From NCBI RefSeq assembly GCF_044324785.1, contig NZ_CP172127.1: 64,000 bases of DNA; one strand, given 5' to 3'. The position numbers and the translations under genes were made by a program. Of this stretch, positions 22,307 through 62,491 are shown piece by piece. The notes under the pieces are model-generated. The model was not told the origin of the DNA. It saw only the letters and a program-made list of their open reading frames with translations, and searched no databases. The stretch's first letter is position 1. Every line of letters starts with the position of its first letter. This DNA is from Escherichia coli (GTDB lineage Bacteria; Pseudomonadota; Gammaproteobacteria; Enterobacterales; Enterobacteriaceae).

Positions 22307-22655
22307 TGCAACAGGACTGGCATTCCACCGACATTATCGCCACGCTGAAAAAGCGGGGAACGTCTCTGGCGGCGCAGAGAAAAACTCATTGCGGACGCGC
22401 TGTAAATATCGTCAGAAATCATCTGGCCTTCAAGGTACTTTGATAGCAAAGGCAAGCAGGCTGGTTCAGTCCCGTGTTTCTCTTCTTGCATTTTCAGAAA
22501 TGGGAGGCTGGGAGTCTATCGAAATGGTTCGTCGATATGCTCACCTCGCACCTAATCACCTTACCGAACACGCACGGCAAATAGACTCGATCCTGAACCC
22601 ATCGGTCCCAAATTTGTCCCAGTCAAAAAATAAGGAAGGTACTAATGATGTGTAA
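22303..22655 (+). pseudogene. Fusion remnant: frameshifted Ner/Nlp-like HTH gene fragment joined to the 3' end (~190 bp) of a tyrosine-integrase gene
   Basis: The first 24 codons ([24 protein letters not shown]) match the Ner/Nlp family N-terminus as I recall it, then the frame breaks. From about 22460 the DNA and translation ([36 protein letters not shown]) parallel the C-terminus of the intact int at 62240-62431, and the stop sits at the same offset from the tRNA-derived repeat. Confidence 0.55.
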
Positions 22656-22715
22656 CTTATTGATTTAAATGGTGCCGATAATAGGAGTCGAACCTACGAC
22701 CTTCGCATTACGAAT
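22652..22715. repeat. Prophage attachment-site repeat (attL): 64-bp direct repeat containing the 3'-terminal 46 nt of tRNA-Thr (thrW)
   Basis: Identical 64-mer to 62428-62491 (GTAACTTATTGATTTAAATGGTGCCGATAATAGGAGTCGAACCTACGACCTTCGCATTACGAAT); the sequences diverge on both sides. Confidence 0.85.
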
Positions 22716-23044
22716 CTGTAGAACCAATCATAACTATCTGTTTTAGCAAGCATTAACCGCATTCACCAAGCAATAGTTGATGGCACAAACAGAAAGTTGA
22801 TGCATGATGTTGTCATGTGTATGTCACAAATACGGCACAACGATCTTCAAACATGTAGCCACCCAGCATAGAAGAGCACAAATCCTTGCAATCCAGTGCA
22901 AAGCTTTGTGTACCTTAGTTTTGTCTCATAGGTAATTCTGCTTTAACTGCGATGCAGGAATCTGTCACCAGACGCACGTCTCGTTGTTTTATGGTTTTCC
23001 GTTCATGATTAATATGTTAGCTTGTCAAAGTTTGTGTTTAAGAT

Positions 23045-23716
23045 ATGGTGATTGATGCAATGTTAAGCGTTCAGATGACTCCACAAGCAAAAGTTAGCTT
23101 CGAGGAGCAATGTTTTTTTCATGCTTCATGTCTTGTTGTTGCCCCAATAAATGTTGGAGCATTCTCCTACTTTGGCGCTAATTGTATGCTCGGCGGCTTT
23201 ACGATGGGTAGATTTTGTTCAGTTGCTCCAGGAGTAAAAATTGGCCTTGGCGAGCATGAAACTGGGTATTTTTCTACGCATCCTTTTTTCTTTGGCTCAA
23301 AAAATGGTTTTAAAATCCCTGATGGTATAGGAATGCAACGCGACCTCTCTCAACAGAAGCATGGTATACCAAGAATTGGTCATGACGTATGGATAGGTGC
23401 AAATGCGGTTATCAGGCGAGGTATAACTATTGGTACTGGCGCTGTTATTGCTGCTGGCGCTATTGTCACCAAAAATGTCGATCCATATTCAATCGTAGGT
23501 GGCGTTTCTGCAAAACACCTAGGGTACAGATTTGAGGAATCAATCATCAAAGAGTTACTGGATAGCCAATGGTGGGAATATGATTTAAGCTCATTTATTG
23601 GGATTGATACAAGGACACCGACGACTTTTTTAGAGCAGTTTAATGCTGTAAAAGATAAAAAGAAGGCATCTTATAAGAGATTTACAATTCTTCCATCCGG
23701 TGAAATTGTTGAATAG
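23045..23716 (+). CDS. Hexapeptide-repeat xenobiotic acetyltransferase (XAT; Vat/CatB-like)
   Basis: Left-handed beta-helix repeats plus the C-terminal segment [53 protein letters not shown]...[10 protein letters not shown], which closely parallels streptogramin-A / chloramphenicol-B acetyltransferases as I recall them; AT-rich; lies between attL and the tailspike gene. Confidence 0.7.
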
Positions 23717-23735
23717 CGCATCCCTGCGCTATATT

Positions 23736-26105
23736 TTAAATAAACATAAGAATAAACATCAGAAGTTCTTCGTATCTGATACCATACTGATAGCCAGCAG
23801 GTTTAATAATAACCTGCCTTCCTGTGTAATATTCCTCGTCGTACCACTCTCCTGTTTCATTGTTTTTAACACTCCTAATCAATACCTCTGGAGCATAAAT
23901 ATCATCCCATTCATCATAACACCAGAACGCATAGTTATTAGGGTCAAGACCGTATTTTCTGAGAATATTACCTACAGTTTGTGCACCAACGCCGAAATGA
24001 ATCCGAGCGCCATCACTCTTGATCTTTACTGCATCTTTAAATTTAAACCTCCAGATATTTTCCTTTATTTCAAGCGCAGCAAGACGCTCTGATTCTGTTG
24101 TTTTCTCGTCAGCCTCAATACGCAATTTCAGCTCTTCATTCGACGTGTTGATACTGCCAGTACCAGCGTATACCTGTGACCATCGAAATGCTGATGTTCC
24201 GTTTGAGTTAACATTATCAACAGTTGGTTTTATAAGGCCAGAAAAATGAGTTTCAGGTGTATTAATATATGTATATGCACCTGCTGTACTACGAGTCCTT
24301 AACTCAAAGCTGTCTATATCAACACCAGTCCTACGAATTATAAGGAAGTTATTTCCTGCGGAACCAGTATCGGTTTGAGTGCTAACAGACAATCCGTTTC
24401 GTGTATCAATACGTATATTCTTCCCGTTCTCCAGCGAAGCAGAATTATGTAGATACAGCGAGTTGTCAGTGTAGAGATTGTGTTTACCTACATTGCTAAA
24501 TGTATAAGTATTGCTTGTGTTATCACTGTTCCTATGGAATTGCTGAAGAGTGTAGGCAGAAGATGCTCCGTATCCATCACAATGGAAATTTCTGCACAGC
24601 TGCAAATCGAATAACAATACGGTGTCAGCATTAATGCTCACATTATTAAAGCATGTTGCAAAGTTGGCACCATACTGTGAATTGGAATCGCCAATCTGTG
24701 CGCACACATCAAGCAAACCAAAAGTTACATTGGTAAAGTTATTTGCATCACCGGCGTCAAGAACAATCCCTTTCTTAGTCCCTGAATACCCTCTGGCAGT
24801 GCCGATCTCAACTCCCTGGAATGAACACACGCGAGCACGACTAAGCTTAAGACCAACCCATTCCAGACCATGATCGTAACCTTTTGCTGCGCGGTGAATA
24901 AACATACCATTCATGATGAGAAGGAATCTGTTATCAAGCCGTACTGGTTCAAGTTGGGCATTAATACCAACATTTGTGCATATACATTCACCATAAGCAT
25001 AACGATTCGTTTCAAATATACGATCATCAGCGTCGTAAATGCCTCGTAATGCCTTGGCGGCATCAATATTAAGCAATGTAAAATATGTCTTCTGCTTAAT
25101 TTCAAAAAAATTTGCAACATTATGCGTTGTGATATCACTCACACGCATTGATAAAATCCCCTCTTCTGGAGCGGTGCGAATGAATCCATCAAGGAACTGT
25201 TCATTATAACTTTTGGCTATCTGATAACATCCAACAGCATCAATGCGTTCGATTGTGAACTGCCAACTATCACCACAGTTAAAAGACCATCTCCAGCCGT
25301 ATTTCTGAGCGAATTCATCATATTCAACATTTGCAGGTTCAGAACAGAAAGATAAAAATCTAAATGTTGGTTTTGGCCTTAGATGGTTAATCCCGGAACC
25401 TCTTGGGGTATATATGGCATTATCTCCATTCCCACCTTTTGTTTTAACTGTAAGGTGACTTAAACCAAATTCAATATCATATTTAGTTGGTGCGGCGAAA
25501 ACAAAGCCGTCTTTTGGTGATGTGGTATTGTCAAACACAATAACCGTTTCACCCTGCCCATCACCGCACATATTTACTGGTGGTATATTAACGGGGCCAG
25601 TCAAACTATATGTTCCAGTTGGCACATATAGTTTTCCACCCTCTCCAATAGCATTTGCCGCTGCAATAAATGCCGCCGTATCATCGTTAACACCGTCACC
25701 TTTCGCCCCATAATGCTGTGGCGTAATTAACAGCATACGGTCAGAAAAAATCTCTGTCCTAAGTTGATCAGGATCGTATTTTAATACATTTGGAAAATAA
25801 AACTGCTGAGTGCCATATGCATCATATACAGCCATAGAATGGCCTTGCACGGTAACGAATTTGGCAATCTGTCCGTTATATACCGGATAACCAGCAGCGT
25901 TAATAATGATTGGTTGAGAAACAGGAACGTGAGAACCGTCTTCGTTCTCTACATAAACCGGAATCTGGTTTTCAGGATTTACCGGGTCAGTGTCAATTTT
26001 ACCGATATAAATTTTTCCATTAGCATTTGCTTTAAACGAGCGAGCTAAAGTGAATAACTGACTTGGTTGTGAAACAACAACATTGGCATTTATTGAATCT
26101 GTCAT
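23736..26105 (-). CDS. Phage tailspike protein (P22 gp9-like head-binding domain with a divergent receptor-binding body)
   Basis: N-terminal ~115 aa ([18 protein letters not shown]...[12 protein letters not shown]...[13 protein letters not shown]...VLKYDPDQ) match the P22 tailspike head-binding domain; the remainder is unrelated and AT-rich at the 3' end. Confidence 0.85.
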
Positions 26106-26204: not shown

Positions 26205-27083
26205 TCAGTAGTTATGTACTGAAGGAGGTAATTCTTTATTCTTAAGTCTCATCCATGCGGAAATATTCGTTGGTCCGTCTGGCTCATTAATATCAACATC
26301 TCGTGTGTGATTGATTAAAACGTCTCTCGCCATTCCGATAACATACGAGAATTCATGACCGTAGTCGTAGCATCTGCCGGAATAGTTCGATTGAATTTGT
26401 TTCAGCGCCGGATACAGTTCGCGGAATAATGCCTGTGAGCGGTTGGCATAATCCCATAACCATACAAGGCTGTTTGCTTCTTTTGCAGAAAGCTCGTTGG
26501 TTTTCTTCTCTTGTTTGCCAATGAACTCACCTTCAAGCACTACCCTGTGGATGTACTCTACGGCCAGCGGGATTTGTTCAATTGAAAGTTCATCAATGCT
26601 GTCAATACCAAAACGCTGATGAACCATATTGTATGCATCGTCATAGCGAAGTCCTTTCTTTCCTACCAGCATGTTTACTGCATCGCGTAGCGGTGTTCTT
26701 TCCTCAACAGTGGTTTTCTTTCCTTTTACATACTCGCCATGTTTGCGAATTGAAGGCAGAACTTCTGCTGTTACCCACTTGCGGAATTTGTGCGGGACTG
26801 AACCTTTATTGACTGCATCGCGGCAGCGCAGAACCAATGTATACATACCTGATTCGCTCACAATGCTTAGATTCTGCTCACCACCAAGGGTGTAACTTAA
26901 AGTTACTCCCTTTTCATCGTCATCAAGTGCAGTAAGCGCCTTGCGTGAGTTAGTCAAATCTAAAGCATCACAAACATCTTTAGCTACAAACCACGGCTCA
27001 CCGCACTTGTTGATGACGCGGATTTCACTGTCGCCGAATTTGAAGATGGTGAAATCGTTTTGTGCCTTTGCTATACTTTTCAT
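26205..27083 (-). CDS. ant: Antirepressor Ant (Bro-N/KilAC type) of the immI region
   Basis: 292 aa; N-terminus [25 protein letters not shown] is typical of P22-like Ant; sits downstream of arc. Confidence 0.8.
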
Positions 27084-27151: not shown

Positions 27152-27313
27152 TTACGCACCAATGCGCCCTTCCTTCTTAAAGCTTTCCATTACTCGCTGA
27201 TAAATCTCAGAATTAACAGACCGACCATTTTCTTCCGCCACCTTGCGTACCAAATCCAATACTTCTTTAGGCCACCGCAAATTGAACTGTGGCATTTTGC
27301 TCATTCCTTTCAT
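27152..27313 (-). CDS. arc: Arc repressor (53 aa)
   Basis: From the internal ATG at 27313: MKGMSKMPQFNLRWPKEVLDLVRKVAEENGRSVNSEIYQRVMESFKKEGRIGA, essentially the P22 Arc sequence as I recall it. Confidence 0.9.
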   Translation of the reverse strand: MKGMSKMPQFNLRWPKEVLDLVRKVAEENGRSVNSEIYQRVMESFKKEGRIGA

Positions 27314-27403
27314 GTTCACCTCACAATATAGGTCCACGGTGGACCTATTGAGAATATAGTAGAGTGCTTCTATCATGTCAATACACTAACTTGGAGTGAT
27401 GGC
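27314..27403. promoter_or_regulatory. Divergent Pant/Pmnt control region with Arc and Mnt operators
   Basis: Perfect palindrome TAGGTCCACGGTGGACCTA (Mnt operator) and ATAGTAGAGTGCTTCTATCAT (Arc operator) between the divergent arc and mnt starts. Confidence 0.85.
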
Positions 27404-27658
27404 ATGGCTAGAGATGATCCGCACTTTAACTTCCGTATGCCTTTGGAAGTAAGAGAAAAATTGAAATTAAGAGCCGAGGCTAACGGAAGGTCAATGAACT
27501 CTGAGTTATTACAAATCGTTCAGGATGCACTATCAAAACCATCACCGATTACAGGATATCGCGACGAAGCTGAACGCTTGGCTGATCAGCAGGCTGAGCA
27601 GTTCAAGGCTATAGTGTTTGAGACACTTAAAAAGATTTATGAAAAGGATTTGAAATGA
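27404..27658 (+). CDS. mnt: Mnt repressor (maintenance of lysogeny)
   Basis: 84 aa, MARDDPHFNFRMPLEVREKLKLRAEANGRSMNSELLQIVQDALSKPSP...; ribbon-helix-helix N-terminus like P22 Mnt. Confidence 0.9.
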   Translation: MARDDPHFNFRMPLEVREKLKLRAEANGRSMNSELLQIVQDALSKPSPITGYRDEAERLADQQAEQFKAIVFETLKKIYEKDLK

Positions 27659-27709
27659 GATTTCTATCACTGTTCTTGTTAGCAGTTGTCTCTTCTTCCA
27701 GTGCTGAGC

Positions 27710-28766
27710 GGCTTTGTTGAATAAATCGAACTTTTGCTGAGTTGAAGGATCAGATCACGTATCTTCCCGACAACGCAGACCGTTCCGTGGCAAAGCAAAA
27801 GTTCAAAATCACCAACTGGCCCACCTACAATAAAGCCCTCATCAACCGTGGCTCCATAACTTTCTGGCTGGATGATGAAGCTATTCAGGCCTGGTATGAG
27901 TCAGCAACACCTTCTTCACGAGGCAGACCTCAGCGCTATTCTGACCTTGCCATCACTACTGTGCTGGTCATTAAACGCGTATTCAGGCTGACCCTGCGGG
28001 CTGCGCAGGGCTTTATTGATTCCATTTTTTCTCTGATGAACGTTCCGCTACGCTGCCCGGATTACAGCTGTGTCAGCAGGCGGGCAAAGTCGGTTAATGT
28101 CAGTTTCAAAACGCCCACCCGGGGTGAAATCGCACACCTGGTAATTGATTCCACCGGGCTGAAGGTCTTCGGTGAAGGCGAGTGGAAAGTCAAAAAGCAT
28201 GGCCAGGAACGCCGCCGTATCTGGCGTAAGCTGCATCTCGCCGTTGACAGTAAAACACATGAAATCATCTGCGCTGACCTGTCGCTGAACAACGTTACGG
28301 ACTCAGAGGCCTTCCCCGGGTTAATCCGGCAAACCCACCGGAAAATCAGGTCAGCCGCCGCCGATGGCGCTTACGATACCCGGCTATGTCACGATGAACT
28401 GCGGCGTAAGAAAATCAGCGCGCTTATCCCTCCCCGAAAAGGTGCGGGTTACTGGCCCGGTGAATATGCAGACCGTAACCGTGCAGTGGCTAATCAGCGA
28501 ATGACCGGGAGTAATGCGCGGTGGAAATGGACAACAGATTACAACCGTCGCTCGATAGCGGAAACGGCGATGTACCGGGTAAAACAGCTGTTCGGGGGTT
28601 CACTGACGCTGCGTGACTACGATGGTCAGGTTGCGGAGGCTATGGCCCTGGTACGAGCGCTGAACAAAATGACGAAAGCAGGTATGCCTGAAAGCGTGCG
28701 TATTGCCTGAAAACACAACCCGCTACGGGGGAGACTTACCCGAAATCTGATTTATTCAACAAAGCC
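27710..28766 (+). mobile_element. IS903-like insertion sequence (IS5 family), 1057 bp, flanked by a 9-bp target-site duplication
   Basis: Terminal inverted repeats GGCTTTGTTGAATAAATC (27710-27727) and GATTTATTCAACAAAGCC (28749-28766); direct 9-bp duplication GTGCTGAGC at 27701-27709 and 28767-28775; 1057 bp matches IS903. Confidence 0.9.
27787..28710 (+). CDS. IS903-type DDE transposase (307 aa from GTG 27787)
   Basis: The VAKQKFKITNWPTYNKALINRGSITFWLDDEAIQAWYE N-terminus matches IS903 transposase as I recall it; the ORF is also open from an upstream ATG at 27742. Confidence 0.85.
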   Translation: MAKQKFKITNWPTYNKALINRGSITFWLDDEAIQAWYESATPSSRGRPQRYSDLAITTVLVIKRVFRLTLRAAQGFIDSIFSLMNVPLRCPDYSCVSRRAKSVNVSFKTPTRGEIAHLVIDSTGLKVFGEGEWKVKKHGQERRRIWRKLHLAVDSKTHEIICADLSLNNVTDSEAFPGLIRQTHRKIRSAAADGAYDTRLCHDELRRKKISALIPPRKGAGYWPGEYADRNRAVANQRMTGSNARWKWTTDYNRRSIAETAMYRVKQLFGGSLTLRDYDGQVAEAMALVRALNKMTKAGMPESVRIA

Positions 28767-29071
28767 GTGCTGAGCTGCGCGAGCTTCAAACGGGTAATGA
28801 CCTTCTTTACAACATTCAACAAGGTAAAAAGGGTGATGATTTTTCATCGCTTTACATTACTGGATATTTGCGCGGAGTAACTGACTCATTGATACTAATT
28901 GGTTCTCTATGTCCTCCTGATGGCGTTGACATGTATCAATACACCGATATCGTTGAGAAATCTCTAAACAAAAACCCAGAATCAAGAAATGAGAGTGCAG
29001 TTATACTAACCGCCCTAGCAGTAGGAAAAACATTTCCGTGCAAAAAGAATCAATAACAATAAGGGCTTAAA

Positions 29072-29461
29072 ATGAAATTGATTATAGCAATGGCTTTCCT
29101 TGTCTTCTCGTTTTCTGTCTCAGCAGAGTGCTGGGTCGTTGGAGATATGCACGGAATAAGCTATTCAGAACGAAATAATTTTCAACCGGAAGAAGATGGT
29201 TTTAGTGGAACATTCATCATTAAGACAAACGGTGAAGATGCCAGTATCACATATTCTGGGACGGATGCGGGCGGCATGGCTTACAAAGCATTGTCTAAAA
29301 ACTCCATCCTAGGAATTGGCGCGAATGGAGAAACTCAACGCGTTATAGACTCATGGGTAATACATCCTACTGGAACAGTTTTAATGTCAAAAACCATTTC
29401 CGGTTATGGAAATATGGATTCAACCAAAGCTTTTGTTGGAAAAGTAAAAAGAAAATGTTAA
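29072..29461 (+). CDS. Hypothetical secreted/periplasmic protein (129 aa)
   Basis: Signal peptide MKLIIAMAFLVFSFSVSAEC; second gene of the mnt-downstream operon; no recognisable domain. Confidence 0.6.
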   Translation: MKLIIAMAFLVFSFSVSAECWVVGDMHGISYSERNNFQPEEDGFSGTFIIKTNGEDASITYSGTDAGGMAYKALSKNSILGIGANGETQRVIDSWVIHPTGTVLMSKTISGYGNMDSTKAFVGKVKRKC

Positions 29462-29482
29462 CGATAGGATTATGGCCCTACA

Positions 29483-29677
29483 TCAACAGCTTCCGCGTCC
29501 CTGAGTAATTCTGTTGCGGATTTGCTTCTTGCGGTGGTTTAAGCTGGAGAGCTTGGCTTCTGCTTCTGATATTTGCGCATCAAGATCTTTAAGCTCAAGA
29601 TCTGAAAGTCGCTGGTCAAGCAGGGTTTGGTTCAACTCAATATTGTTCAGACGTTCTTCTATGGTCATAACTTTCAT
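29483..29677 (-). CDS. Small coiled-coil protein (about 64 aa from ATG 29677)
   Basis: Heptad-rich MKVMTIEERLNNIELNQTLLDQRLSDLELKDLDAQISEAEAKLSSLNHRKKQIRNRI; start codon choice is uncertain. Confidence 0.4.
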   Translation of the reverse strand: MKVMTIEERLNNIELNQTLLDQRLSDLELKDLDAQISEAEAKLSSLNHRKKQIRNRITQGRGSC

Positions 29678-29699
29678 CCTATAACTATTTGGAATCAAA

Positions 29700-29882
29700 A
29701 TGAAAAATATATTAATTGGTTTCGTTTTTGGTGCAGCCTGCGCTGCCAGCATTAGCGTTATCGCCGCCCAGATTGTTGGTGGTAACTCATATCTAATGGG
29801 CTATGACGTCATGATAGATGGAGAGGTTGTTTGCTCAGACCCTTATGTATGGACGTCGACAAAAGAAATAGAATGTGACTAA
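29700..29882 (+). CDS. Small signal-peptide/membrane protein (60 aa)
   Basis: [28 protein letters not shown] hydrophobic N-terminus; AT-rich cargo region. Confidence 0.35.
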
Positions 29883-29977
29883 TACCAGCCTGATGGCTGG
29901 TTAATTTTTGCATTTACCTGGGCCATATTGACTACTTATAAAATGAGATCAATATTTAATCGCCCAATAACGGGTGT

Positions 29978-30172
29978 ATGTTGAGGTATATCATGGCGAA
30001 AAAACCAGGTGAAAATACAGGGAAAAACGGCGGAATATACCAGGAAGTTGGTCCACGCGGTGGTAAGAAGGACAATTTTGCCACCGTCAGGGACAACGAA
30101 AGACTTCCGCCAACAACAAAGCCAGGTCATGGCTGGGTATTGGATAAGCGAACTCCAGACAGCAAAAAGTAA
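29978..30172 (+). CDS. Small basic Gly/Lys-rich protein (64 aa; start may be ATG 29993)
   Basis: ORF only; MAKKPGENTGKNGGIYQEVGPRGGKKDN. Confidence 0.3.
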   Translation: MLRYIMAKKPGENTGKNGGIYQEVGPRGGKKDNFATVRDNERLPPTTKPGHGWVLDKRTPDSKK

Positions 30173-30185
30173 TAATCAAGCCGGG

Positions 30186-30551
30186 TCACTCCGGCTTTTT
30201 GATATGTCGCTCGCAGAACTCAACAAGCCTGCTCATTAAGTAGCAGTAAGTCTCGTTGGCTCTTCCTGGTTCAACATCAACACCTACCCTTGAGCAGATA
30301 TCGAATGCCATGTGAGCGCACTCATGGGCAATAGTAGATAGTTTGCCATTGAACACGCCTATCACATGCAAAACACCATTCTCGCTACTCATTGTATGAG
30401 ACGCTCCGTTGGCGTCCGAGTCATGCACGTCAACGCCAAGTTTTTGATGCAGGCGTTGCCATTCTGGAAAGTCTCTACAAAACACAATGGTACCGCTCTC
30501 AAAGAGCGGTACGAGCATCTTTGGTACGTTTCCAATGTTAACTTTTTTCAT
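30186..30551 (-). CDS. Small HExxH-motif protein (putative Zn-metallopeptidase-like), 121 aa
   Basis: Contains IAHECAHMAF (HExxH) plus downstream E/C residues; no further similarity recognised. Confidence 0.45.
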   Translation of the reverse strand: MKKVNIGNVPKMLVPLFESGTIVFCRDFPEWQRLHQKLGVDVHDSDANGASHTMSSENGVLHVIGVFNGKLSTIAHECAHMAFDICSRVGVDVEPGRANETYCYLMSRLVEFCERHIKKPE

Positions 30552-30582
30552 GGTATCCTGCGCAAAACTAAGGAGGTTGGTG

Positions 30583-30770
30583 TGAAGAAAAAATTTGTAA
30601 ACGTTGCAAAGTGCGCAATTTTTATATTTTTTATGACCTTTTACGGATTTAGTGCCGGAGAAGGTTTCGATCGTGATGCCAATGCATTCAGTTTCTTTTG
30701 TCTGTCTATAGTGGTCATAATTGTATGGGTGGAATTAAAGCAAACATTGTTTCATGTGCTAGGGAAATAA
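30583..30770 (+). CDS. Small two-TM membrane protein (62 aa from GTG 30583)
   Basis: Strong RBS AAGGAGG 6 bp upstream of GTG; VKKKFVNVAKCAIFIFFMTFYGFSAGEGFDRDANAFSFFCLSIVVIIVWVELKQTLFHVLGK. Confidence 0.45.
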
Positions 30771-47468: not shown

Positions 47469-47473
47469 ATGTT

Positions 47474-50438: not shown

Positions 50439-50541
50439 AGGTGAGCCGTGTAGTTGAAGGTTTTTACGTCAGATTCTTTTGGGATTGGCTTGCGTTTATT
50501 TCTGGAGCGTTTCGTTGGAAGGTATTTGCAGTTTTCGCAGA

Positions 50542-51974: not shown

Positions 51975-51978
51975 ATAC

Positions 51979-52218: not shown

Positions 52219-52274
52219 TTTTTTGGCAACGTATTCCTAAAACTGCTTTCTTGATTCGCCCATATCAATCCCCG

Positions 52275-52870: not shown

Positions 52871-54247
52871 TCATACGTCAGCCCCTTGTGCATATCGTCT
52901 GCCACGCGCAGCAGGTGCATTTGATGCTGTGCAAATCTGTCTGGCTTCATCCTGGTCACATGCAACAAAGTGTCCGTTACAGAACCGCTGGTAAACCGTA
53001 CCAAGCGAGCCAAAACGGTTTTTCGTCACAATGATTTCAGCAAATGGCGCGGCGCTACTGTTCTCGTCATATACCGCTTCCCGATAGAGCATGATGATTG
53101 AGTCTGCGTCCTGCTCAATGCTTCCTGAATCACGCAAATCTGCGTTTGTCGGGCGTTTGTTTGGTCGCTTCTCAACATCGCGCGAAAGCTGACTCAGGGA
53201 GATAACAGGCGTTTTCAGGTCTTTCGCCATCGCCTTCAGGCTTCCGGAGATGTGAGCAATTGCGAGGTCGTTGCGGTCTGCTTTCGGCTTCTCAATCAGG
53301 CCAAGATAATCCGCCATGATGAGTGACAGGTTTGGATTTTCCTGTTTGTGCCGCTCTGCGATTGAGCGAATTTCTTCTACCGATAACCGCGAGGCATCGA
53401 CTACCCATACATCCAAATCTGCAAGCTGACTCATGCCGTTAGCAACACGTGCCCAGCCTTCGTCATCCATCGATGCAGGATTTCGTAGCACGCTAACCGA
53501 CATCCTCCCGGCGTTGGCAATGCTTCGCTCTGCAATCTGCAATGCGCTCATTTCCATCGAGAAAATCAACACTCCGCGCCGGACGTCAGAACCAGGAATA
53601 ACACGACTTGCAACGCCTTCGGCAATCTTCAGCGCCAGTTCGGTTTTCCCCATACCAGGACGAGCAGCGATTATCACCAGGTCTTCCGCGTTCATCCCTC
53701 CGGTGATGGCATCAAGTTCTTCGATTCCGGTCTTCAGGGTATCTGACTCTTCTCCGTTCCTCAGACGCCTGTCAAGCGTGTCAGTGTAGTCAGTGATGAT
53801 TTCACCTAACCGTACAGGTTTAACCTCGTCACGGGGCTTTCTGATGGCTGAGAGACGCTTTACAAGCTCATCCATCGCTTGACTCGATGCGTCGATGGTT
53901 CCGCTCTGAATTGGTTCACGCATTTCATCCATGATTTCCAGCACCAGACGGCGGTGATAGTTATCCGCGACCATTCCGGCATATCCCTTCAGGTTTGCGG
54001 CACTCGGGCAGTTTTTGCTGGTCATCAGGATTGACGTGAAATGCTCCTCTCCGCACGCCTCGGCAACCATCAGCGCATCGATTAGGTTTCTGTTTCTCGC
54101 CTGCTTGCGGATAACCTCGAAGGCTTTCCGGTAGAGCGGAATTGAAAACGCTTCCGGCTCCAGCGTTGCCAGAACGTCGCTGGCGGTTGGTGTTAATCCA
54201 CCAATCAGCAGGCCACCGATAACGCTCGCTTCGATATCCTGTCTCAT
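52871..54247 (-). CDS. Replicative DNA helicase (DnaB-like; P22 gene 12 analogue)
   Basis: Walker A ARPGMGKT plus DnaB-type N- and C-terminal domains; 458 aa. Confidence 0.9.
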
Positions 54248-55065
54248 GCAATCCCCCTGTCTGCAAACTTCCCTTCCCGTACTCCAGTTAACGAATCTTC
54301 CCTCAGCAGGTAATCAAAATCAGCTGTCCAGCCCGTGTCGTTGTCTCCGAAGTAAAACGGCTTGGCCTGATGCACAAACGCCCTGACATACGCTCTGAAA
54401 CCGTCCACGTTTGGCGTTTTCAGTTGCGGGATGATTTTCTTCAGGCGGCGTTTGCGTTTCTCGTTGACCGCAACAGCGTGTGGCAGTCTGTCACCGACTT
54501 CGGTGTTGTAGGCGTTCAGGAAGGATTCGTAGTCGATTCGTTCTGCCTTGCGACGTTCAGGTTTAACCTGCCCATCGCCACCCCCGTTAGGGGGTAAGGG
54601 GGTATTTGTATTTATTGTCTTTTGTATATTGTCTTTTGTGTTTAGCTGACTTGGCTTATACCCATTAGCCGACTTGGCTAATGTTTTATTAGCTGTTTTA
54701 GCTAATGTTAAGCTGTCCTGGCTAATCCACTGAGAAACAACCTTGTTCACTCCGATTTTCACGCCATCAGCAATGAGGAATTTACGCTCGATAAGCTGGC
54801 GCTTGGCAGCGCAAACATGAGTGTGATGAATACCTGTCATGGCTGCTATCTGCGTGTTTGTGAGTCGATCCATCGGCTTATTGAATCCGTATGTCTTGCG
54901 CATGATAGCGAGCATCACCTTCAACTGCCGGACGGTTAAATCAGCCATCAGCAGACTGTCGGTAATCTCGTTAGCAACGCGCATGAAACCATCTTCGGTA
55001 TCTGCCACGCGATGCTCCACGACCTCAAGTTGAGGCCTGTAATCAGCTAACTTAACGACGCCCAT
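54244..55065 (-). CDS. Replication initiation protein (lambda O / P22 gp18-like)
   Basis: 273 aa; N-terminal HTH; the gene contains an iteron-rich AT segment (see repeat feature). Confidence 0.75.
54580..54730. repeat. Putative phage origin of replication (iterons inside the O-like gene)
   Basis: CCCCCGTTAGGGGG palindrome followed by direct repeats TTGTCTTTTGT (x2), GACTTGGCT (x2) and TAGCTAATGTT (x2) in an AT-rich stretch. Confidence 0.5.
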
Positions 55066-55247
55066 GTTTCACTCCTGCTTTGGCTAGTCTGTAAACACCA
55101 ACAAGGCGCTCTGCGAACGCCCTGTTATTTGCTGCGGCTACCACTAATCCCTCAGGTGAATCAGGGTGTCGAATCTCTTCTTTTTCCTGGTATTTCTTAC
55201 GACGTTTTGTCATAATGACTCCTGTGGATTGATCCAGTCTTTCTACA

Positions 55248-55529
55248 TCAGGCCTCGAAGAATTCGCCGTTCTTCGGGGCTTTTTCTTTTGTCAGGTAAT
55301 TGGCAAGCCGCTTAGTCAGCTCAGCCATTTCATCGTCTTCGATTCCGTATTCCAGAACAGCCAGCATCATGCTTACCTGCGAGAAGAAACCATTCTTCCA
55401 TCGGCTTACCTGATATTCAGGAACCCCCATTGCTCGAGCGAATGTCTTCTGCCCCATCAGTGCCAGTTTGTTCAGCAAGGCTGACTCGATGCGAGCCGCT
55501 TTCTTGCTTTTAGTTGCAATAGTACCCAT
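55248..55529 (-). CDS. CII-like transcriptional activator
   Basis: ARIESALLNKLALMGQKTFARAMGVPEYQVSRWK...MLAVLEYGIEDDEMAEL parallels lambda CII. Confidence 0.8.
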   Translation of the reverse strand: MGTIATKSKKAARIESALLNKLALMGQKTFARAMGVPEYQVSRWKNGFFSQVSMMLAVLEYGIEDDEMAELTKRLANYLTKEKAPKNGEFFEA

Positions 55530-55605: not shown

Positions 55606-55637
55606 GCCCTTTTTCAGGGCGGGGATGTGTAAGAGCG
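55606..55637 (-). promoter_or_regulatory. nutR (boxA + boxB)
   Basis: Minus-strand boxA CGCTCTTAC and boxB GCCCTGAAAAAGGGC, between cro and cII. Confidence 0.8.
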
Positions 55638-55645: not shown

Positions 55646-55876
55646 TTAAGCGGCCATTAATTCAGGCCAGATGCTTTCCCAATCAACCGGATGAAGGTCT
55701 TTGCGAGTCACTTCACCATTGCTGAACTTCTCAATCAGAACACAAAGTGCTGCGCCCAATTCATGATTACGGCTAAGTGCTTTCCTCAAATAGCCGATAG
55801 AAGTTCCGCACTTGGTGGCAAATTCTCTCTGCTCTTCCAGTGAAAGGGAGTTCAGATACAAGCGGAGTTCTTCCAT
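55646..55876 (-). CDS. Cro-like repressor (HTH)
   Basis: 76 aa, divergent from cI across the operator region; HTH segment REFATKCGTSIGYLRKALS. Confidence 0.7.
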   Translation of the reverse strand: MEELRLYLNSLSLEEQREFATKCGTSIGYLRKALSRNHELGAALCVLIEKFSNGEVTRKDLHPVDWESIWPELMAA

Positions 55877-55910
55877 TTGCTATCTCCTTCCCGTTGTTGA
55901 ATAAGATGAG

Positions 55911-55965
55911 TTTACCTGTAGGTAAAAAGCAAATCAATACCCATAGGTTATTTACCGGCAGGTAA
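55911..55965. promoter_or_regulatory. Right operator region (OR) with PR/PRM
   Basis: Palindromic sites TTTACCTGTAGGTAAA (55911-55926) and TTTACCGGCAGGTAA (55951-55965), consensus TTACC-N4-GGTAA. Confidence 0.7.
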
Positions 55966-55984
55966 TCAAAGATAGAATTAAATC

Positions 55985-56671
55985 ATGGATAAATACGAAC
56001 AAAGACGACTAAGGCTGATAGAGATAAGAGACCGATTCTGTAATGGAAAGGCCTCAGAGTTGGCTCGTCGAATAGAAAGGGAACCATCATACGTTTCCAG
56101 AATGCTGTATCCGGAAGGAAAAAGCGGAAAAAAACGCATTGCTGACGATATGATGGAACTAATTGAAAAATCTTTTAATCTCCCACGCGGATGGATGGAC
56201 ATGCTTGCAGATGGTAAAGCTGGAGCTACAGACCATCTTGAGTTTGCGGGTAACGTTCGTGCGGGTTTTGTTCCGGTAATTGGTGAAGCCGTTTTGGGAG
56301 TTGATGGCTCAGTGGATATGATTGAATTCAGATCCGGTTGGTTAAGCATCTACAGCGGCGATAAAGATGCTTACGGTCTGAAGGTTAAGGGTGACAGCAT
56401 GTGGCCAAGGATTCAGTCAGGAGAATATGTTGTTATTGAACCAAATACGCCAGTACATCCAGGTGATGAAGTCTTTGTAAGGACCAAAGACGGTCACAAC
56501 ATGATAAAGATCATGAACAAAACAAGAGACGGTGATTATCAGTTTAGTAGCATAAACAGTGATCACCGCCCAATCACTCTTCCTGTTGAAGAAGTTGATA
56601 AAATGCATTTTGTTTCAGCTATTGTGAAACACACCAGGTACGTAGACCAGGACGATCTGCCAAAAGTTTGA
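55985..56671 (+). CDS. CI-type prophage repressor (HTH + LexA-like S24 peptidase domain)
   Basis: N-terminal HTH and C-terminal autocleavage domain with GDSMWP (Ser nucleophile); 228 aa. Confidence 0.85.
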   Translation: MDKYEQRRLRLIEIRDRFCNGKASELARRIEREPSYVSRMLYPEGKSGKKRIADDMMELIEKSFNLPRGWMDMLADGKAGATDHLEFAGNVRAGFVPVIGEAVLGVDGSVDMIEFRSGWLSIYSGDKDAYGLKVKGDSMWPRIQSGEYVVIEPNTPVHPGDEVFVRTKDGHNMIKIMNKTRDGDYQFSSINSDHRPITLPVEEVDKMHFVSAIVKHTRYVDQDDLPKV

Positions 56672-56685
56672 GGATAAAGCAGCAA

Positions 56686-56982
56686 GTGTTTATACCCGGC
56701 ATAGTAGTCGCTGTTGTAATCATCTGCTTCATATGGGCAAAGTTATCTCCTGTAAGCTCTAAGCATACAGCTGAACTCATGAAGAAGAAGCATCTTATAC
56801 ATGAGGCAGAATCGATAATTAAAAAGTTCAAAGGCATGTCATACGACGACATGTCATCAGAGCAGATTGCTATGTATAAATGCGCCATTGAGCGTCTTGA
56901 CTACTTAAACGGACTCAAACCCAAACACACCCCAGTAGAATCAAAATTGCCGCAATGGCCAAGCAATCCAAATAGCTTCTGA
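56686..56982 (+). CDS. Small single-pass membrane protein downstream of cI (rex-locus position), about 98 aa
   Basis: GTG at 56686 with GAGG upstream (or TTG 56668); TM helix VFIPGIVVAVVIICFIWA then a soluble domain; followed by an intrinsic terminator. Confidence 0.5.
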   Translation: MFIPGIVVAVVIICFIWAKLSPVSSKHTAELMKKKHLIHEAESIIKKFKGMSYDDMSSEQIAMYKCAIERLDYLNGLKPKHTPVESKLPQWPSNPNSF

Positions 56983-57035: not shown

Positions 57036-57116
57036 TTACCTGAAAATTCAAGCAGGTAAACTCTTACATCAATTTTATTTACCTGCAGGTATAGACAACT
57101 GTTTTACCTGTAGGTA
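57036..57116. promoter_or_regulatory. Left operator region (OL) with PL
   Basis: Sites TTACCTG-N10-CAGGTAA (57036-57059), TTACCTGCAGGTA (57079-57091) and TTACCTGTAGGTA (57104-57116), the same consensus as OR. Confidence 0.7.
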
Positions 57117-57160
57117 TATTTTAGGCCATCAGCAGGACGCACTGACCACCATGAAGGTGA

Positions 57161-57191
57161 TGCTCTTAAAAATTAAGCCCTGAAGAAGGGC
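57161..57191 (+). promoter_or_regulatory. nutL (boxA + boxB)
   Basis: TGCTCTTAAAAATTAAGCCCTGAAGAAGGGC; boxB hairpin GCCCTGAAGAAGGGC as in lambda nutL. Confidence 0.85.
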
Positions 57192-57348: not shown

Positions 57349-58246
<898 letters not shown>

Positions 58247-58396: not shown

Positions 58397-58409
58397 GACG
58401 GAGTAAACG

Positions 58410-58658
58410 ATGATAAAAACTGATTACCCTGCAGAGCTTAAACAAAAAGTAATAACAGCAATTAAATGCTCTTTTATCTCATGTCGTACAGATGAAGAAC
58501 GATATGTCGTTGAGTGTACAATTGTCGAGTTTCTCACAGCGATGGAATTTACCGCTGCAGAATCAATAGATGTATTAAAGCAATCAGACGGAAATGATAT
58601 TGAAACGGATGATGTTATTGACCGACTAATAAAATCATTCGAAGAAGAAATAGAGTAG
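58410..58658 (+). CDS. Hypothetical acidic early protein, 82 aa
   Basis: RBS GGAG upstream of ATG; unknown function. Confidence 0.45.
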   Translation: MIKTDYPAELKQKVITAIKCSFISCRTDEERYVVECTIVEFLTAMEFTAAESIDVLKQSDGNDIETDDVIDRLIKSFEEEIE

Positions 58659-58741
58659 CCGCCTGAGCGCGGCTTTACCGCATACCAATAACGCTTCACT
58701 TGAGGCGTTTTCGTTATGCAATCAAACAGAAGGAGCATCCT

Positions 58742-58912
58742 ATGCAACAGTTCGCTATTGCAGGGGCGGCATCGGTTCGCCCTTTCAACCCGATTTTATC
58801 GGTGCAGCATTCACGAAAAAATATTTTAACCGGAGCAGACTTTAAACAACCAAGAATGAAAAGTTTGCTCGAAAAGCTTTGGGATATTTTGAAACAACAA
58901 GGCCGTCCATGA
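58742..58912 (+). CDS. CIII-like protein (56 aa from ATG 58742)
   Basis: RBS AGGAG; MQQFAIAGA... resembles the lambda CIII N-terminus (MQYAIAGW...). Confidence 0.55.
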   Translation: MQQFAIAGAASVRPFNPILSVQHSRKNILTGADFKQPRMKSLLEKLWDILKQQGRP

Positions 58913-59166
58913 GTTTTACAGATAACTGGTCAGACGAAGAATTCATTCGTCAGATGAAAGAATTAATCGGTAACGAAGGAGATATTCATGTCACTTGCAA
59001 CCACAGTGAAGGAGAGCAAGTTACAGAGACGCATGCACACGCAGAAAGCTCTCTGGTATCGCCATAATGGCGACCGCGAAGGAATGCGGGTATGCCTTAA
59101 TTTGTCCCGAGTCGAAGTATTAAATCAGCGTTATTTCCTTGGGCCTTGTCCATTCTGAGGTGAATT

Positions 59167-59874
59167 ATGGATTTGAACAAATTCGATGAGCCATTCAGCC
59201 CTGAAGATATCGAATGGCGAATACAGCAAAGCGGTAAAACACGCGATGGCAAGGTGTGGGCTATGGTGCTGGCTTATGTCACGAACCGGGCAATCATGAA
59301 ACGCCTGGACGATGTTTGCGGCAAAGCAGGATGGCGCAATGAATACCGCGATATTCCCAACAACGGCGGCGTTGAATGCGGCATATCAATAAAGATTGAT
59401 TCCGAATGGGTAACCAAATGGGATGCTGCTGAAAACACGCAGGTAGAAGCCGTCAAAGGTGGTCGTTCCGGTGCAATGAAGCGCGCTGCCGTTCAGTGGG
59501 GAATCGGTCGGTATCTGTATAACCTTGAGGAAGGTTTCGCACAAACATCTCTCGATAAAAAGCAGGGGTGGCACAGGGCAAAACTGAAGGATGGAACAGG
59601 ATTTTACTGGATCCCTCCATCGCTTCCGGGATGGGCAATCCCAGCATCAGATAACAAACCATCACCAGAAAATACCAACCAGAAATCTCCATCGGTTGAC
59701 TGCGAACAAATCCTGAAAGACTTCAGCGATTATGCATCGAAAGAAACTGATAAGAAAAAACTCATCGAGCGTTATCAGCGTGACTGGCAATTAATGGCTG
59801 GAAACGAGGAGGCGCAGGCTAAATGCGTTCAGGTAATGAACATCAGAGTTAACGAGCTAAAACAGGCGGCATAA
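59167..59874 (+). CDS. ssDNA-annealing recombinase with Erf-type C-terminal domain
   Basis: C-terminal ...DYASKETDKKKLIERYQRDWQLMAGNEEAQAKCVQVMNIRVNELKQAA parallels the P22 Erf C-terminus; the N-terminal domain differs. Confidence 0.7.
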   Translation: MDLNKFDEPFSPEDIEWRIQQSGKTRDGKVWAMVLAYVTNRAIMKRLDDVCGKAGWRNEYRDIPNNGGVECGISIKIDSEWVTKWDAAENTQVEAVKGGRSGAMKRAAVQWGIGRYLYNLEEGFAQTSLDKKQGWHRAKLKDGTGFYWIPPSLPGWAIPASDNKPSPENTNQKSPSVDCEQILKDFSDYASKETDKKKLIERYQRDWQLMAGNEEAQAKCVQVMNIRVNELKQAA

Positions 59875-60390
59875 ATGGCAAGCAGAGGCGTAAATAAGGT
59901 GATCATTATTGGTCGCCTTGGGCATGATCCAGAAATCAGATATTCACCATCAGGAACGGCATTTGCAAACCTTACAGTTGCTACGTCAGAACAATGGCGT
60001 GATAAGCAAACTGGAGAGCAAAAGGAGCAGACGGAGTGGCACCGCGTGGTAATGAGCGGAAAACTGGCAGAAATTGCCAGCGAATATCTGCGAAAAGGCT
60101 CTGAGGTTTATCTTGAAGGAAAATTGCGGACAAGAAAATGGCAGGATCAAAGCGGACAGGATCGGTTCACTACCGAAGTCATCGTGGGCGTTGGTGGAAC
60201 CATGCAAATGCTTGGTGGCAAGCAAGGAGGCAATGAACAGTCTTCACCTCAGCGAAATGACGGTCAGCAACAAAGACAGCAACCTCAGCAGCAAGGGAAT
60301 CACAGCGAACCACCTATGGATTTTGACGACGATATACCCTTTGCACCAGTAACTCTCCCCTTCCCTCGTCACGCTATTCACGCAATTTAA
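59875..60390 (+). CDS. ssb: Single-stranded DNA-binding protein (SSB)
   Basis: OB-fold N-terminus ([34 protein letters not shown]...), Gly/Gln-rich linker and acidic tail DFDDDIPF. Confidence 0.9.
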
Positions 60391-60403
60391 TCAGGAGAAA
60401 ATC

Positions 60404-60700
60404 ATGCCAGCGCCTCAGTATGGTGCGGATGACCCGCGCCGCTGTTCCAGCAATTCCGTATCGGAGGTGCTGGATAAATTCAGAAAAAACTACGATCGGA
60501 TAATGTCGCTACCGCAGGAAACGAAAGAGGAAAAGGAATTTCGCCACTGTATATGGCTTGCAGAGAAAGAAGAACGCGATCGAATTTACCAGACATCAAT
60601 CCGACCATTCCGCAAAGCCACATATACCCACTTCCCTGAATATATCGACCCGCGCCTGCGTAATTACCGCTCACGCTATGGCGCTATCAGTAATGACTGA
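60404..60700 (+). CDS. Hypothetical early protein, 98 aa
   Basis: ORF only. Confidence 0.4.
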
Positions 60701-61046
60701 GGAATTTACCATGAGAGGACTTGCATACAATCCCGGCATTCTTCCGGCAGAAATGATTATTCGCCAACGCGTAAAGCCAATGCCATCGAGAGAGGAATTA
60801 CTTAAGAGAAATAGTTTCGGTTCTGTTAATGACAACAAATATCTGAATGCGATGTGGCGCAAAGGAGGCAAGCAGTGAACAAGATTGACTATCAGGCACT
60901 GCGTGAGATAGCAAAGCACCAGAGACTTACAGAATAATCAGCGAGCTACGCAATGACTAACGCCTCACACTCGATGAGGCTTGTTCATTGCTCAATGATA
61001 TCCAGACCTACCGCAATAATACCAATCCAATAAATGGAGATTCCAG

Positions 61047-61394
61047 GTGGAAGAAGAAATCTTCACTCGTGAAGAGGCAGCGTCGTATCTGAAGGTAGAC
61101 AAAGGCACTATCACGCAGTGGATACGAAGTGGACGACTTCAGGCCGCAAAGATAAATCCAGATAAACCTAAAAGCCCATATCGCATTTGCAAGTCAGACT
61201 GCATTGCGGCGCTTAAGTCTGTGAGACACAATAGCGCGGTGAATGCGGTTGATGTGCAGGAGGTTAAAGCATGTCAATCAAACTACGCGGTGGCACGTGG
61301 CACTGTGATTTCGTCGCGCCAGATGGATCAAGAGTTAGACGCTCTCTTGAAACATCGGACAAAAGGCAAGCGCAAGAACTTCACGATCGTCTAA
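61047..61394 (+). CDS. xis: Excisionase (Xis-like HTH)
   Basis: 115 aa; N-terminal REEAASYLKVDKGTITQWIRSGRL HTH; immediately upstream of and overlapping int. Confidence 0.65.
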   Translation: MEEEIFTREEAASYLKVDKGTITQWIRSGRLQAAKINPDKPKSPYRICKSDCIAALKSVRHNSAVNAVDVQEVKACQSNYAVARGTVISSRQMDQELDALLKHRTKGKRKNFTIV

Positions 61395-62431
61395 AAGCAG
61401 AAGCGTGGAGAGTAAAAAATCTCGGGGAATCACCGAAAAAGCTATTCAAGGAAGCCTGCATACGGTGGCTGCGTGAGAAATCGGATAAGAAGTCCATTGA
61501 TGATGACAAGAGCATTATATCGTTCTGGATGTTGCACTTCAGAGAAACCATTCTCTCAGACATAACAACAGAAAAAATAATGGAGGCGGTAGACGGGATG
61601 GAAAACCGCCGCCATCGCCTGAACTGGGAAATGAGCCGGGACAGGTGTTTGCGGCTTGGCAAGCCAGTGCCGGAGTATAAACCAAAGCTGGCAAGCAAAG
61701 GAACGAAGACGCGGCATCTGGCAATACTTCGCGCTATTCTCAATATGGCTGTTGAATGGGGATGGCTTGACAGGGCGCCCAAAATATCAACACCACGCGT
61801 TAAGAATGGACGAATCAGATGGCTTACAGAGGAGGAATCGAAGCGCCTGTTTGCAGAAATTGCTCCTCATTTCTTCCCTGTGGTCATGTTTGCAATCACG
61901 ACAGGCCTTCGCCGTTCCAACGTTACAGACCTTGAGTGGTCACAGGTCGATCTGGATAAGAAAATGGCATGGATGCACCCTGATGAAACAAAAGCTGGCA
62001 ATGCGATCGGAGTTCCTCTTAACGAAACCGCATGCCAGATATTAAGAAAACAGCAGGGTCTCCATAAGAGATGGGTGTTTGTCCACACCAAACCTGCCTA
62101 CCGAAGCGACGGAACAAAAACAGCAGCGGTAAGGAAGATGAGAACCGACAGCAACAAGGCATGGAAGGGAGCGTTAAAGCGGGCAGGCATTAGCAACTTC
62201 CGCTTCCATGACCTGAGGCATACCTGGGCAAGCTGGCTGGTTCAGTCCGGTGTCTCTCTTCTTGCACTTAAAGAGATGGGAGGATGGGAAACTCTCGAAA
62301 TGGTTCAAAGATACGCCCACCTTTCAGCCGGGCATCTCACCGAGCACGCGAGCAAAATCGATGCGATTATAAGTCGCAATGGCACAAATACGGCACAAGA
62401 GGAGAACGTGGTTTACTTAAATGCGAGGTAA
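61271..62431 (+). CDS. int: Tyrosine integrase (P22-like)
   Basis: 386 aa; catalytic-domain residues (...RFHDLRHTWASWLVQSGVSLLALKEMGGWETLEMVQRYAHL) and N-terminus like P22 Int; its stop lies inside the att repeat next to thrW. Confidence 0.9.
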   Translation: MSIKLRGGTWHCDFVAPDGSRVRRSLETSDKRQAQELHDRLKAEAWRVKNLGESPKKLFKEACIRWLREKSDKKSIDDDKSIISFWMLHFRETILSDITTEKIMEAVDGMENRRHRLNWEMSRDRCLRLGKPVPEYKPKLASKGTKTRHLAILRAILNMAVEWGWLDRAPKISTPRVKNGRIRWLTEEESKRLFAEIAPHFFPVVMFAITTGLRRSNVTDLEWSQVDLDKKMAWMHPDETKAGNAIGVPLNETACQILRKQQGLHKRWVFVHTKPAYRSDGTKTAAVRKMRTDSNKAWKGALKRAGISNFRFHDLRHTWASWLVQSGVSLLALKEMGGWETLEMVQRYAHLSAGHLTEHASKIDAIISRNGTNTAQEENVVYLNAR

Positions 62432-62491
62432 CTTATTGATTTAAATGGTGCCGATAATAGGAGTCGAACCTACGACCTTCGCATTACGAAT
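62428..62491. repeat. Prophage attachment-site repeat (attR): 64 bp overlapping the thrW 3' end
   Basis: Identical to 22652-22715. Confidence 0.85.

Follow-up and report, generated by a model that had tools for sequence, protein, structure and literature searches.

The closest described relatives of the element treated here are lambdoid phages of several kinds, namely the Lederbergviruses HK620 and Sf6, the HK97-like siphovirus HK446, the phages P22, mEp043 and phage_14408_1, the Salmonella phage BTP1 and, for the late region, phage 21 and DLP12. We analyzed a stretch of 64,000 nucleotides (nt) of Escherichia coli DNA (RefSeq assembly GCF_044324785.1, contig NZ_CP172127.1), the whole of which is called the window below and for which a preliminary description had proposed a lambdoid prophage of mosaic make-up, about 39.8 kb long, in the tRNA gene thrW. 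Our analysis agrees with this description in its main points. The element is very probably the genome of a temperate P22-like, that is lambdoid and short-tailed, phage of 39,776 bp which was integrated by its Int protein at thrW.

HK620 and Sf6 share with the prophage the module which extends from gp20/gp7 to the large terminase; it is 96-97% identical at the nucleotide level and 98-100% at the amino acid level and has the same gene order. Sf6 further shares Q21, pR', the tRNA-Asn/Thr pair, erf-ssb-abc2 and part of the nin region. Both phages, however, use another integration site with an IntS-type integrase, have different immunity regions and tailspikes, carry a lambda-type holin and endolysin and possess no complete immI, of which HK620 retains remnants only. 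The conversion genes are different as well: oac in Sf6 and an oligosaccharide repeat unit polymerase gene in HK620. With HK446 the prophage has in common Int, Xis, the thrW/ptwF-like attP, O, P, the lambda-type N, an hkaP-like gene and the anti-restriction gene, whereas HK446 has an HK97/HK022-type head and a long tail, lambda-type Q and lysis genes and another repressor.

P22 resembles the prophage in its overall architecture, the thrW target, the overlap of xis and int and immI (mnt, arc, sar, the C-terminal part of ant, Omnt and Oarc; 85-98%). In contrast, the structural genes of P22 are about 80% identical at the nucleotide level or unmatched, and its c2 immunity region, gene 24 antiterminator, lambda-type gene 23 (Q), lysis genes, gtrABC and tailspike are different. 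In the late region, phage 21 and DLP12 have a Q21-type Q and an R21/RrrD-type endolysin, as the prophage has, but the holin of the prophage is not S21/EssD-like by sequence; the block of Q, tRNAs, holin, endolysin and Rz is 94.5% identical to that of BTP1. For mEp043 only the immunity module was compared (cro, OR, cI, orf104 and OL are alike), the remainder of its genome being absent among the best overall matches. The closest overall relative is phage_14408_1, which covers 53% of the prophage at 96%. Int-attP, acetyltransferase, tailspike (contiguous there) and the virion module are shared, but replication genes, immunity region, N region, lysis genes and details of immI differ.

Gene identities were obtained by PHROG, Pfam and PDB searches and by BLASTP against the open reading frames (ORFs) of eight reference phage genomes. 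The same eight genomes were compared with the prophage in bins of 500 bp, which gives the following map of best matches:

22.65-26.2 kb: phage_14408_1 only
26.2-27.6 kb: P22 (immI)
33.4-44 kb: HK620, Sf6, 611R6 and phage_14408_1, 96-97%
46.2-47.6 kb: BTP1, 94%
47.2-49.6 kb: Sf6, HK446 and lambda, 97-98%
52.7-55.2 kb: HK446 and 611R6, 97%
55.65-57.1 kb: none of the eight references; mEp043 by a separate search
57.15-58.6 kb: HK446, 99%
59.1-60.6 kb: Sf6, 98%
60.65-62.5 kb: HK446, 98-99%

Podovirus virion genes are thus combined with siphovirus integration and replication genes and with the immunity region of a third phage, which is textbook lambdoid mosaicism. We compared the prophage with 5,426 complete E. 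coli genomes and with 50,697 records of phages; no entry in these sets spans 80% of either of its halves, and the prophage is therefore not a known named phage. Judged by these comparisons, the combination of modules is new and every part is known; it is not a new kind of element.

Boundaries and insertion into thrW

The prophage is bounded by two direct repeats of 64 bp (22652-22715 and 62428-62491). They are exactly identical, as the preliminary description had stated, lie 39,776 bp apart and have differing adjacent bases. The right repeat consists of the 3' 46 nt of thrW, as placed by ARAGORN and Rfam, and 18 nt beyond the tRNA. The int ORF (61271-62431) ends with its TAA stop codon (62429-62431) inside this repeat, again in agreement with the earlier claim. 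When the sequence was shuffled, none of 100 shufflings gave two matches to the 59-nt inner part of the repeat. The features at the two ends, with lengths of proteins in amino acids (aa), are:

22652-22715, no strand: left attachment (att) core, a displaced thrW 3' fragment plus 18 nt, at the junction with an older island
22716-23044, no strand: P' arm of attP, non-coding
61047-62431, plus strand: xis (115 aa) overlapping int (386 aa)
62428-62491, no strand: right att core, the 3' end of the intact thrW
62446-62521, minus strand: thrW, tRNA-Thr(CGT), the integration target (ARAGORN and Rfam)
62636-63889, minus strand: proA, the next gene after thrW

Two independent comparisons corroborate these boundaries and with them the insertion of about 39.8 kb into thrW. 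In E. coli ETEC4070 the left flank, one core and the right flank are contiguous and represent the empty site; therefore the insert measures exactly 39,776 bp. Conversely, joining the ends (int, core, acetyltransferase gene) yields the predicted attP, which aligns collinearly with record NZ_LT599830.1 (phage_14408_1) in one ungapped stretch of 2,306 bp, at 98.7% identity. The joined ends are also nearly identical to attP of the plaque-forming HK446, which is annotated as thrW/ptwF-like; Int is 100% and Xis 99% identical to the HK446 proteins. Thus a tyrosine recombinase gene lies beside att, the core duplicates the 3' end of a tRNA gene and a precise empty site exists, as expected for a tRNA-targeting element. 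The GC content of the prophage is 46.6%, that of the flanks 54%.

NZ_LT599830.1 is a separate record of 41.3 kb in the assembly of E. coli NRZ14408. Both of its ends lie in a terminase gene, by assembly gaps, as would fit a close relative that has been excised or is replicating. A scan of one genome per species (GTDB) with the junction of att core and P' arm gave two matches only, in E. albertii and in a divergent 'E. coli'. On both sides of the att core we found a 16-nt motif, CACAAATACGGCACAA, in the P arm (62379-62398) and in the P' arm (22821-22840). Its sequence is conserved in HK446 as well as in phage_14408_1, and Int may bind it as an arm-type site.

Modules of the prophage

Along the prophage the order is that of a lambdoid phage: int-xis, then N, OL/PL, cI, OR, cro, cII, O, P, nin, Q and lysis genes, with antitermination by N at nut sites and by Q. 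Each module named in the preliminary description was observed at its place, and three details have to be revised, namely the type of Q, the family of the holin and the nature of the left flank. The early and immunity genes are as follows:

52871-55529, minus strand: DnaB-type helicase P (458 aa), O (273 aa), orf53 and cII
55606-55637, minus strand: nutR with boxA CGCTCTTA and boxB GCCCTGAAAAAGGGC
55646-56982, no strand: immunity region with cro (minus strand), OR, cI (plus strand, 228 aa, S24 peptidase domain) and orf104 in the rex position
57037-57191, plus strand: OL/PL and nutL
57349-57672, plus strand: N antiterminator, 107 aa, 95% identical to lambda N
57665-58168, minus strand: hkaP-like gene, 167 aa, antisense within the PL operon
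58410-60878, plus strand: PL-operon genes, namely anti-restriction protein, small ORFs, erf, ssb, abc2 and a DUF2737-like ORF

The distinct operator specificity proposed for CI, TTACC-N4-GGTAA, is well supported. Two perfect sites lie in OR (55912-55925 and 55952-55965) and two sites with one mismatch each in OL (57079-57092 and 57104-57117), so that the immunity region holds four of the five matches in the whole window (0.94 expected by chance). The block of cro, OR, cI, orf104 and OL, 1,551 bp in length, is 99.4% identical to phage mEp043 and has no other close match among the phage records; therefore both phages should have the same immunity specificity. A third operator in OR and a TTACC-N14-GGTAA motif (57037-57060) could not be validated and are candidates only. 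In nutL, boxA (TGCTCTTA) is found at 57161-57168 and boxB (GCCCTGAAGAAGGGC) at 57177-57191; together with nutR and the N protein these sites confirm the lambda-like N system. O and P are 99.6-99.8% identical to their HK446 homologues.

Directly after cI, where lambda has rexAB, orf104 (56668-56982, plus strand) codes for a protein of 104 aa with a hydrophobic N-terminus. It is shared with mEp043 and its sole family is phrog_10450.

The nin region and the late control and lysis genes occupy the following positions:

45944-47148, minus strand: lysis cassette of Rz with embedded Rz1, signal-anchor-release (SAR) endolysin and a class II holin of 67 aa
47393-47548, minus strand: tRNA-Thr(TGT) and tRNA-Asn(GTT)
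47555-47634, minus strand: late control region pR'-qut-tR'
47612-48130, minus strand: Q antiterminator, phage-21 type
48121-52798, minus strand: nin region with ninI, ninH, ninG pseudogene, orf89, ninF, ninX, ninE, N6-adenine methyltransferase gene, ninB and small ORFs
48973-49584, minus strand: ninG (rap) pseudogene, TGA at codon 40 (49467-49465)

The antiterminator had been called a 933W/21-type Q accompanied by tRNAs. The assignment to phage 21 holds (E=2.6e-91 to Q21, PDB 6JNX/6P18) and the tRNAs are present, but a 933W type can be dismissed: the similarity to Q933W amounts to 32% identity over 79 aa, and the tRNAs are Asn/Thr, not the Ile/Arg/Arg (ileZ/argN/argO) of 933W. The Asn/Thr pair is as in Sf6, where it is recorded as similar to phage 21, and in BTP1. 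The pR'-qut-tR' region is nearly identical to that of Sf6, which is annotated as phage-21-like in the Sf6 record.

Similarly, only one half of the proposed phage-21-type cassette of pinholin and SAR endolysin stands. The endolysin shows 95% identity to RrrD of DLP12, which extends to the Gly/Ala-rich N-terminal anchor, and matches the structure of R21 (PDB 3HDE); it is a GH24 lysozyme with a weakly hydrophobic, Gly/Ala-rich signal-anchor-release segment, as is typical of the R21/RrrD type. The holin, in contrast, passes the model of the HP1 family (Pfam PF16080, Phage_holin_2_3) and is 100% identical to the BTP1 holin at the amino acid level. To the S21 family it reaches 19.5 bits with PF04971, under the cut-off of 26, and its BLASTP match to K-12 EssD is non-significant (E=0.024). 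Its layout resembles the S21 type in having an MxxMDKI double start and two hydrophobic segments, and its similarity to holin S of 933W is weak (32% over 62 aa, E=4e-4). Since it is paired with a SAR endolysin, the holin might form small pinholes which depolarize the membrane and so release the endolysin.

The virion genes lie at lower coordinates in the window:

30788-34788, minus strand: ejection proteins gp16 (636 aa), gp20 (461 aa) and gp7 (231 aa)
34791-37856, minus strand: gp14, tail needle gp26 (233 aa, P22/HK620 type), gp10 and gp4
38059-44218, minus strand: coat, scaffold, portal and the large and small terminase subunits (TerL, TerS)
44221-45603, minus strand: orf80 (DUF2560), a gp66-like protein and a 161-aa protein with a MUG113/T5orf172 domain in the position of a moron

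All twelve morphogenesis genes of the P22/Sf6 type are there at full length and in order (TerS, TerL, portal, scaffold, coat, gp4, gp10, gp26, gp14, gp7, gp20, gp16), in line with the preliminary description. The proteins cover their PHROG profiles nearly over the full length, except for the large terminase, which does so partly. Apart from gp7, gp20 and gp16, they have the lengths of their Sf6/HK620/611R6 counterparts and are 97-100% identical at the amino acid level. The same lengths are found in phage_14408_1. Over the greater part of gp7 the identity is 92%, and more divergence is seen in the C-terminal part of gp20 and throughout most of gp16.

At the other end of the structural genes is an immI region of the P22 type, followed by an insertion sequence:

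26205-27083, minus strand: ant (antirepressor), 292 aa
27085-27151, plus strand: sar antisense RNA (Rfam RF00262, 65.6 bits)
27152-27313, minus strand: arc, 53 aa, 98% identical to P22 Arc
27328-27378, no strand: Omnt (AGGTCCACGGTGGACCT) and Oarc (ATGATAGAAGCACTCTACTAT) in the divergent Pant/Pmnt region
27404-27658, plus strand: mnt, 84 aa, intact
27655-29056, plus strand: ORF of 111 aa (phrog_3870) with a signal-peptide-like N-terminal part, ATG overlapping the mnt stop codon, split by IS903B
27710-28766, plus strand: IS903B, 1,057 bp, inverted ends GGCTTTGTTGAATAAATC, 9-bp target duplication GTGCTGAGC (27701-27709 and 28767-28775)
29072-30770, no strand: accessory ORFs between immI and gene 16, namely orf129, orf61, orf64, orf121 and orf134

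Here mnt, arc, ant, sar, Omnt and Oarc are arranged as in P22. The operator/promoter segment aligns with P22 over 131 columns with a mean column identity of 97%, Omnt is palindromic and sar is recognized by Rfam, which bears out the claim of a P22 immI with intact operators. In its N-terminal third, however, Ant belongs to another type. The insertion is a copy of IS903 (IS5 family) by its length of 1,057 bp, terminal inverted repeats of 18 bp, 9-bp duplication and single transposase, and it is 100% identical to E. coli copies annotated as IS903B. It had been placed in the mnt operon; this is correct insofar as it sits just after mnt and splits the small accessory ORF, but mnt itself is intact.

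Proposed life cycle and alternative readings

We suggest a life cycle in which each step rests on the identity of the respective module. The tyrosine integrase very probably recombined the attP core with the identical tRNA sequence at the 3' end of thrW. Integration restored an intact thrW on the int-proximal side and left the displaced 64-bp copy at the opposite end. Lysogeny would be maintained by the mEp043-type CI with its LexA-like S24 domain at the TTACC-N4-GGTAA operators, and in a second circuit Mnt, Arc and sar of the P22-type immI would silence the antirepressor Ant. SOS induction is expected to proceed through the S24 domain of CI. Upon induction the lambda-type N would act at nutL/nutR, and O together with the DnaB-type helicase would replicate the DNA. 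Q21 at pR'-qut would then permit readthrough of tR', the tRNA genes and the late operon. TerS and TerL would package the DNA, presumably by a headful mechanism as in P22, into a capsid of the Sf6/HK620 type; the virion would be completed by gp4/10/26, the ejection proteins gp7/20/16 and a tailspike which could degrade polysaccharide. Finally, class II holin, SAR endolysin and Rz/Rz1 would lyse the cell.

The visible lesions are two only, the nonsense codon in ninG and IS903B in the small accessory ORF. The former was rightly noted in the preliminary description and is a TGA at codon 40, where lambda ninG has CGA (Arg), hence a change of CGA to TGA. Apart from this codon, PHROG recognizes the gene as a homologue of NinG/Rap over its full length. 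The proteins for replication, regulation and lysis, like those for morphogenesis, match their PHROG profiles almost from end to end. All the other genes are free of truncations and frameshifts when compared with their homologues in Sf6, HK620, HK446, BTP1 and lambda, and the closer annotation thus found no essential gene visibly broken, as had been proposed. Judging from these intact reading frames, we consider it rather probable that the prophage still excises and forms particles. Several points weigh against such an inducible prophage. Missense or small regulatory changes are not judgeable from the sequence, an example being the -10 element of pR', which reads AATAAT in the prophage versus CATAAT in Sf6 and BTP1. 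IS903B adds 1,057 bp and may affect the genes downstream of mnt. Moreover, the genomes and phage records searched contain no exact copy of the prophage and thus no direct record of a virion.

It is therefore a serious, though lesser, possibility that the prophage is cryptic and non-inducible, i.e., structurally complete but locked by regulatory or missense mutations or by polarity of IS903B. The ninG nonsense codon and the insertion can be read as the beginning of decay, the single base change in the -10 element of pR' relative to Sf6 and BTP1 could be one such mutation, and the neighboring element at this tRNA has already decayed to a remnant. Both lesions, however, are in apparently dispensable genes; loss of ninG is probably tolerated since in the Sf6 genome record ninG is also disrupted, namely interrupted by IS911. 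In addition, the remaining genes have kept the lengths of their homologues at 90-100% amino acid identity, the two att cores show no mismatch, and a working phage has the identical Int.

The neighboring element leads to a second alternative. The preliminary description was right about the insertion in thrW, but the left repeat does not abut native chromosome. It adjoins the last approximately 120 codons of a second integrase, which belongs to an older island:

13300-22651: older decayed thrW island
13680-15390: AbiEii/AbiEi pair
15632-21493: type I restriction-modification genes hsdR/M/S
21596-21673: isrK RNA
21695-21783: C4 antisense RNA
22290-22655: C-terminal remnant of the integrase

An ORF of the ash family is also among the genes of this island. 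The stop codon of the integrase remnant falls within the repeat too, and the remnant is 77% identical to the prophage int at the nucleotide level and in register. The repeat identity runs 18 nt past the tRNA and spans the int stop codon on both sides because the island had a related int/att module. Prophage and left island (13.3-22.65 kb) might then be regarded as one composite element which moves as a unit, given that they are adjacent, share the att core and have related integrase 3' ends. We regard this as highly improbable. In ETEC4070 the island directly adjoins thrW and the prophage is absent, the ends of the prophage alone form the attP of the excised relative, the island integrase is only a C-terminal fragment, and no third copy of att that would bound the island was found leftward within the window. 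A query composed of the island and the left att core is matched over at least 80% in 20 E. coli genomes, of which ETEC4070 is the one examined. The prophage thus entered a thrW that already held a decayed element, which resulted in a tandem insertion. That the 64-bp repeat arose by local duplication or through an error of assembly has a negligible probability: beyond its bare existence nothing favors this, and the repeat corresponds exactly to the 3' part of a tRNA beside a tyrosine integrase gene, brackets a complete phage genome that is precisely absent from a related chromosome and is found with joined ends in an excised phage record.

For annotation, the analysis provides the exact boundaries of a P22-like prophage, an in-silico empty site, the donor lineage of each module and the two visible lesions. 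The locus illustrates the serial occupation of the thrW hot spot beside a defence island, and nothing in the prophage is unexpected for E. coli. If inducible, it could transduce through headful packaging and might change the surface of the host via its acetyltransferase.

Acetyltransferase, tailspike and accessory genes

Next to the left att core and its P' arm lie two genes which, among the eight reference phages, are shared with phage_14408_1 only:

23045-23716, plus strand: CatB/Vat-related hexapeptide acetyltransferase (XAT), 223 aa, in the position of a moron beside att
23736-26105, minus strand: tailspike, 789 aa

The tailspike begins with the head-binding domain of P22 (Pfam Head_binding, E=1.4e-64, residues 4-114), which is followed by a pectate-lyase-like beta-helix. 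Its PDB matches include the N-terminal domains of the P22 and Sf6 tailspikes, and the C-terminal region matches C-terminal parts of phage tail fibres and endo-N-acetylneuraminidase. XAT scores 96-100 bits against NCBIfam equivalog cut-offs of 300-350; it can thus be rejected as a bona fide CatB or Vat and is related only. An identification as NeuO was likewise discarded, the match to the NeuO structure being weak (E=1e-4).

Phage CUS-3 carries neuO and an endosialidase as a comparable pairing of modification and degradation. It is possible, though rather doubtful, that XAT, as a soluble enzyme, and the tailspike form a matched module in which XAT would modify a surface polysaccharide (capsule or O-antigen) that the tailspike recognizes and degrades. 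If so, the lysogen would alter its own surface polysaccharide via a cytoplasmic enzyme of the XAT type, which is not known in serotype conversion.

The pair of genes has a low GC content (40%) and occurs together in at least seven E. coli genomes. Without the head-binding domain the tailspike recurs at 97% as 'GH28-related protein' in other contexts, including the chromosome of the strain of phage_14408_1.

The 161-aa MUG113/T5orf172 protein (45118-45603, minus strand) is encoded between the lysis and terminase genes and is present in none of the eight reference phages; PADLOC gave a weak match only (PDC-S57, E=4e-4). A PADLOC search for defence genes found no match for the hkaP-like gene, orf104, orf129, orf121, orf134, the anti-restriction gene and XAT, a weak match for one small ORF and matches of the nin-region methyltransferase to models of type II methyltransferases. 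Among the accessory ORFs, orf121 is 99% identical at the amino acid level to an unannotated ORF of P22 and has the length of HK620 hkcC.

Between N and the anti-restriction gene, in the position of sieB, lies the hkaP-like gene, which is 99% identical to an HK446 gene and has paired CxxC motifs near the C-terminus of its product. In Pfam and NCBIfam, as in PADLOC, this protein has no match; the HK620 record labels its hkaP homologue as a putative superinfection exclusion protein. The ssb gene of the prophage (59875-60390) is intact and codes for 171 aa with an acidic tail that contains DDDIPF. In Sf6 the corresponding protein has only 157 aa, and behind its gene lies one for an endonuclease, which according to the record shares 14 contiguous residues with E. 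coli SSB.

Outside the prophage, the best match of proA and its flank among about 5,400 complete E. coli genomes has 97.4% identity, and a host other than E. coli was therefore considered. This was rejected because the ecp-pao flank (1-9600) reaches 98.8%; the host is E. coli in the broad sense, and its proA allele would seem to be divergent or recombinant.

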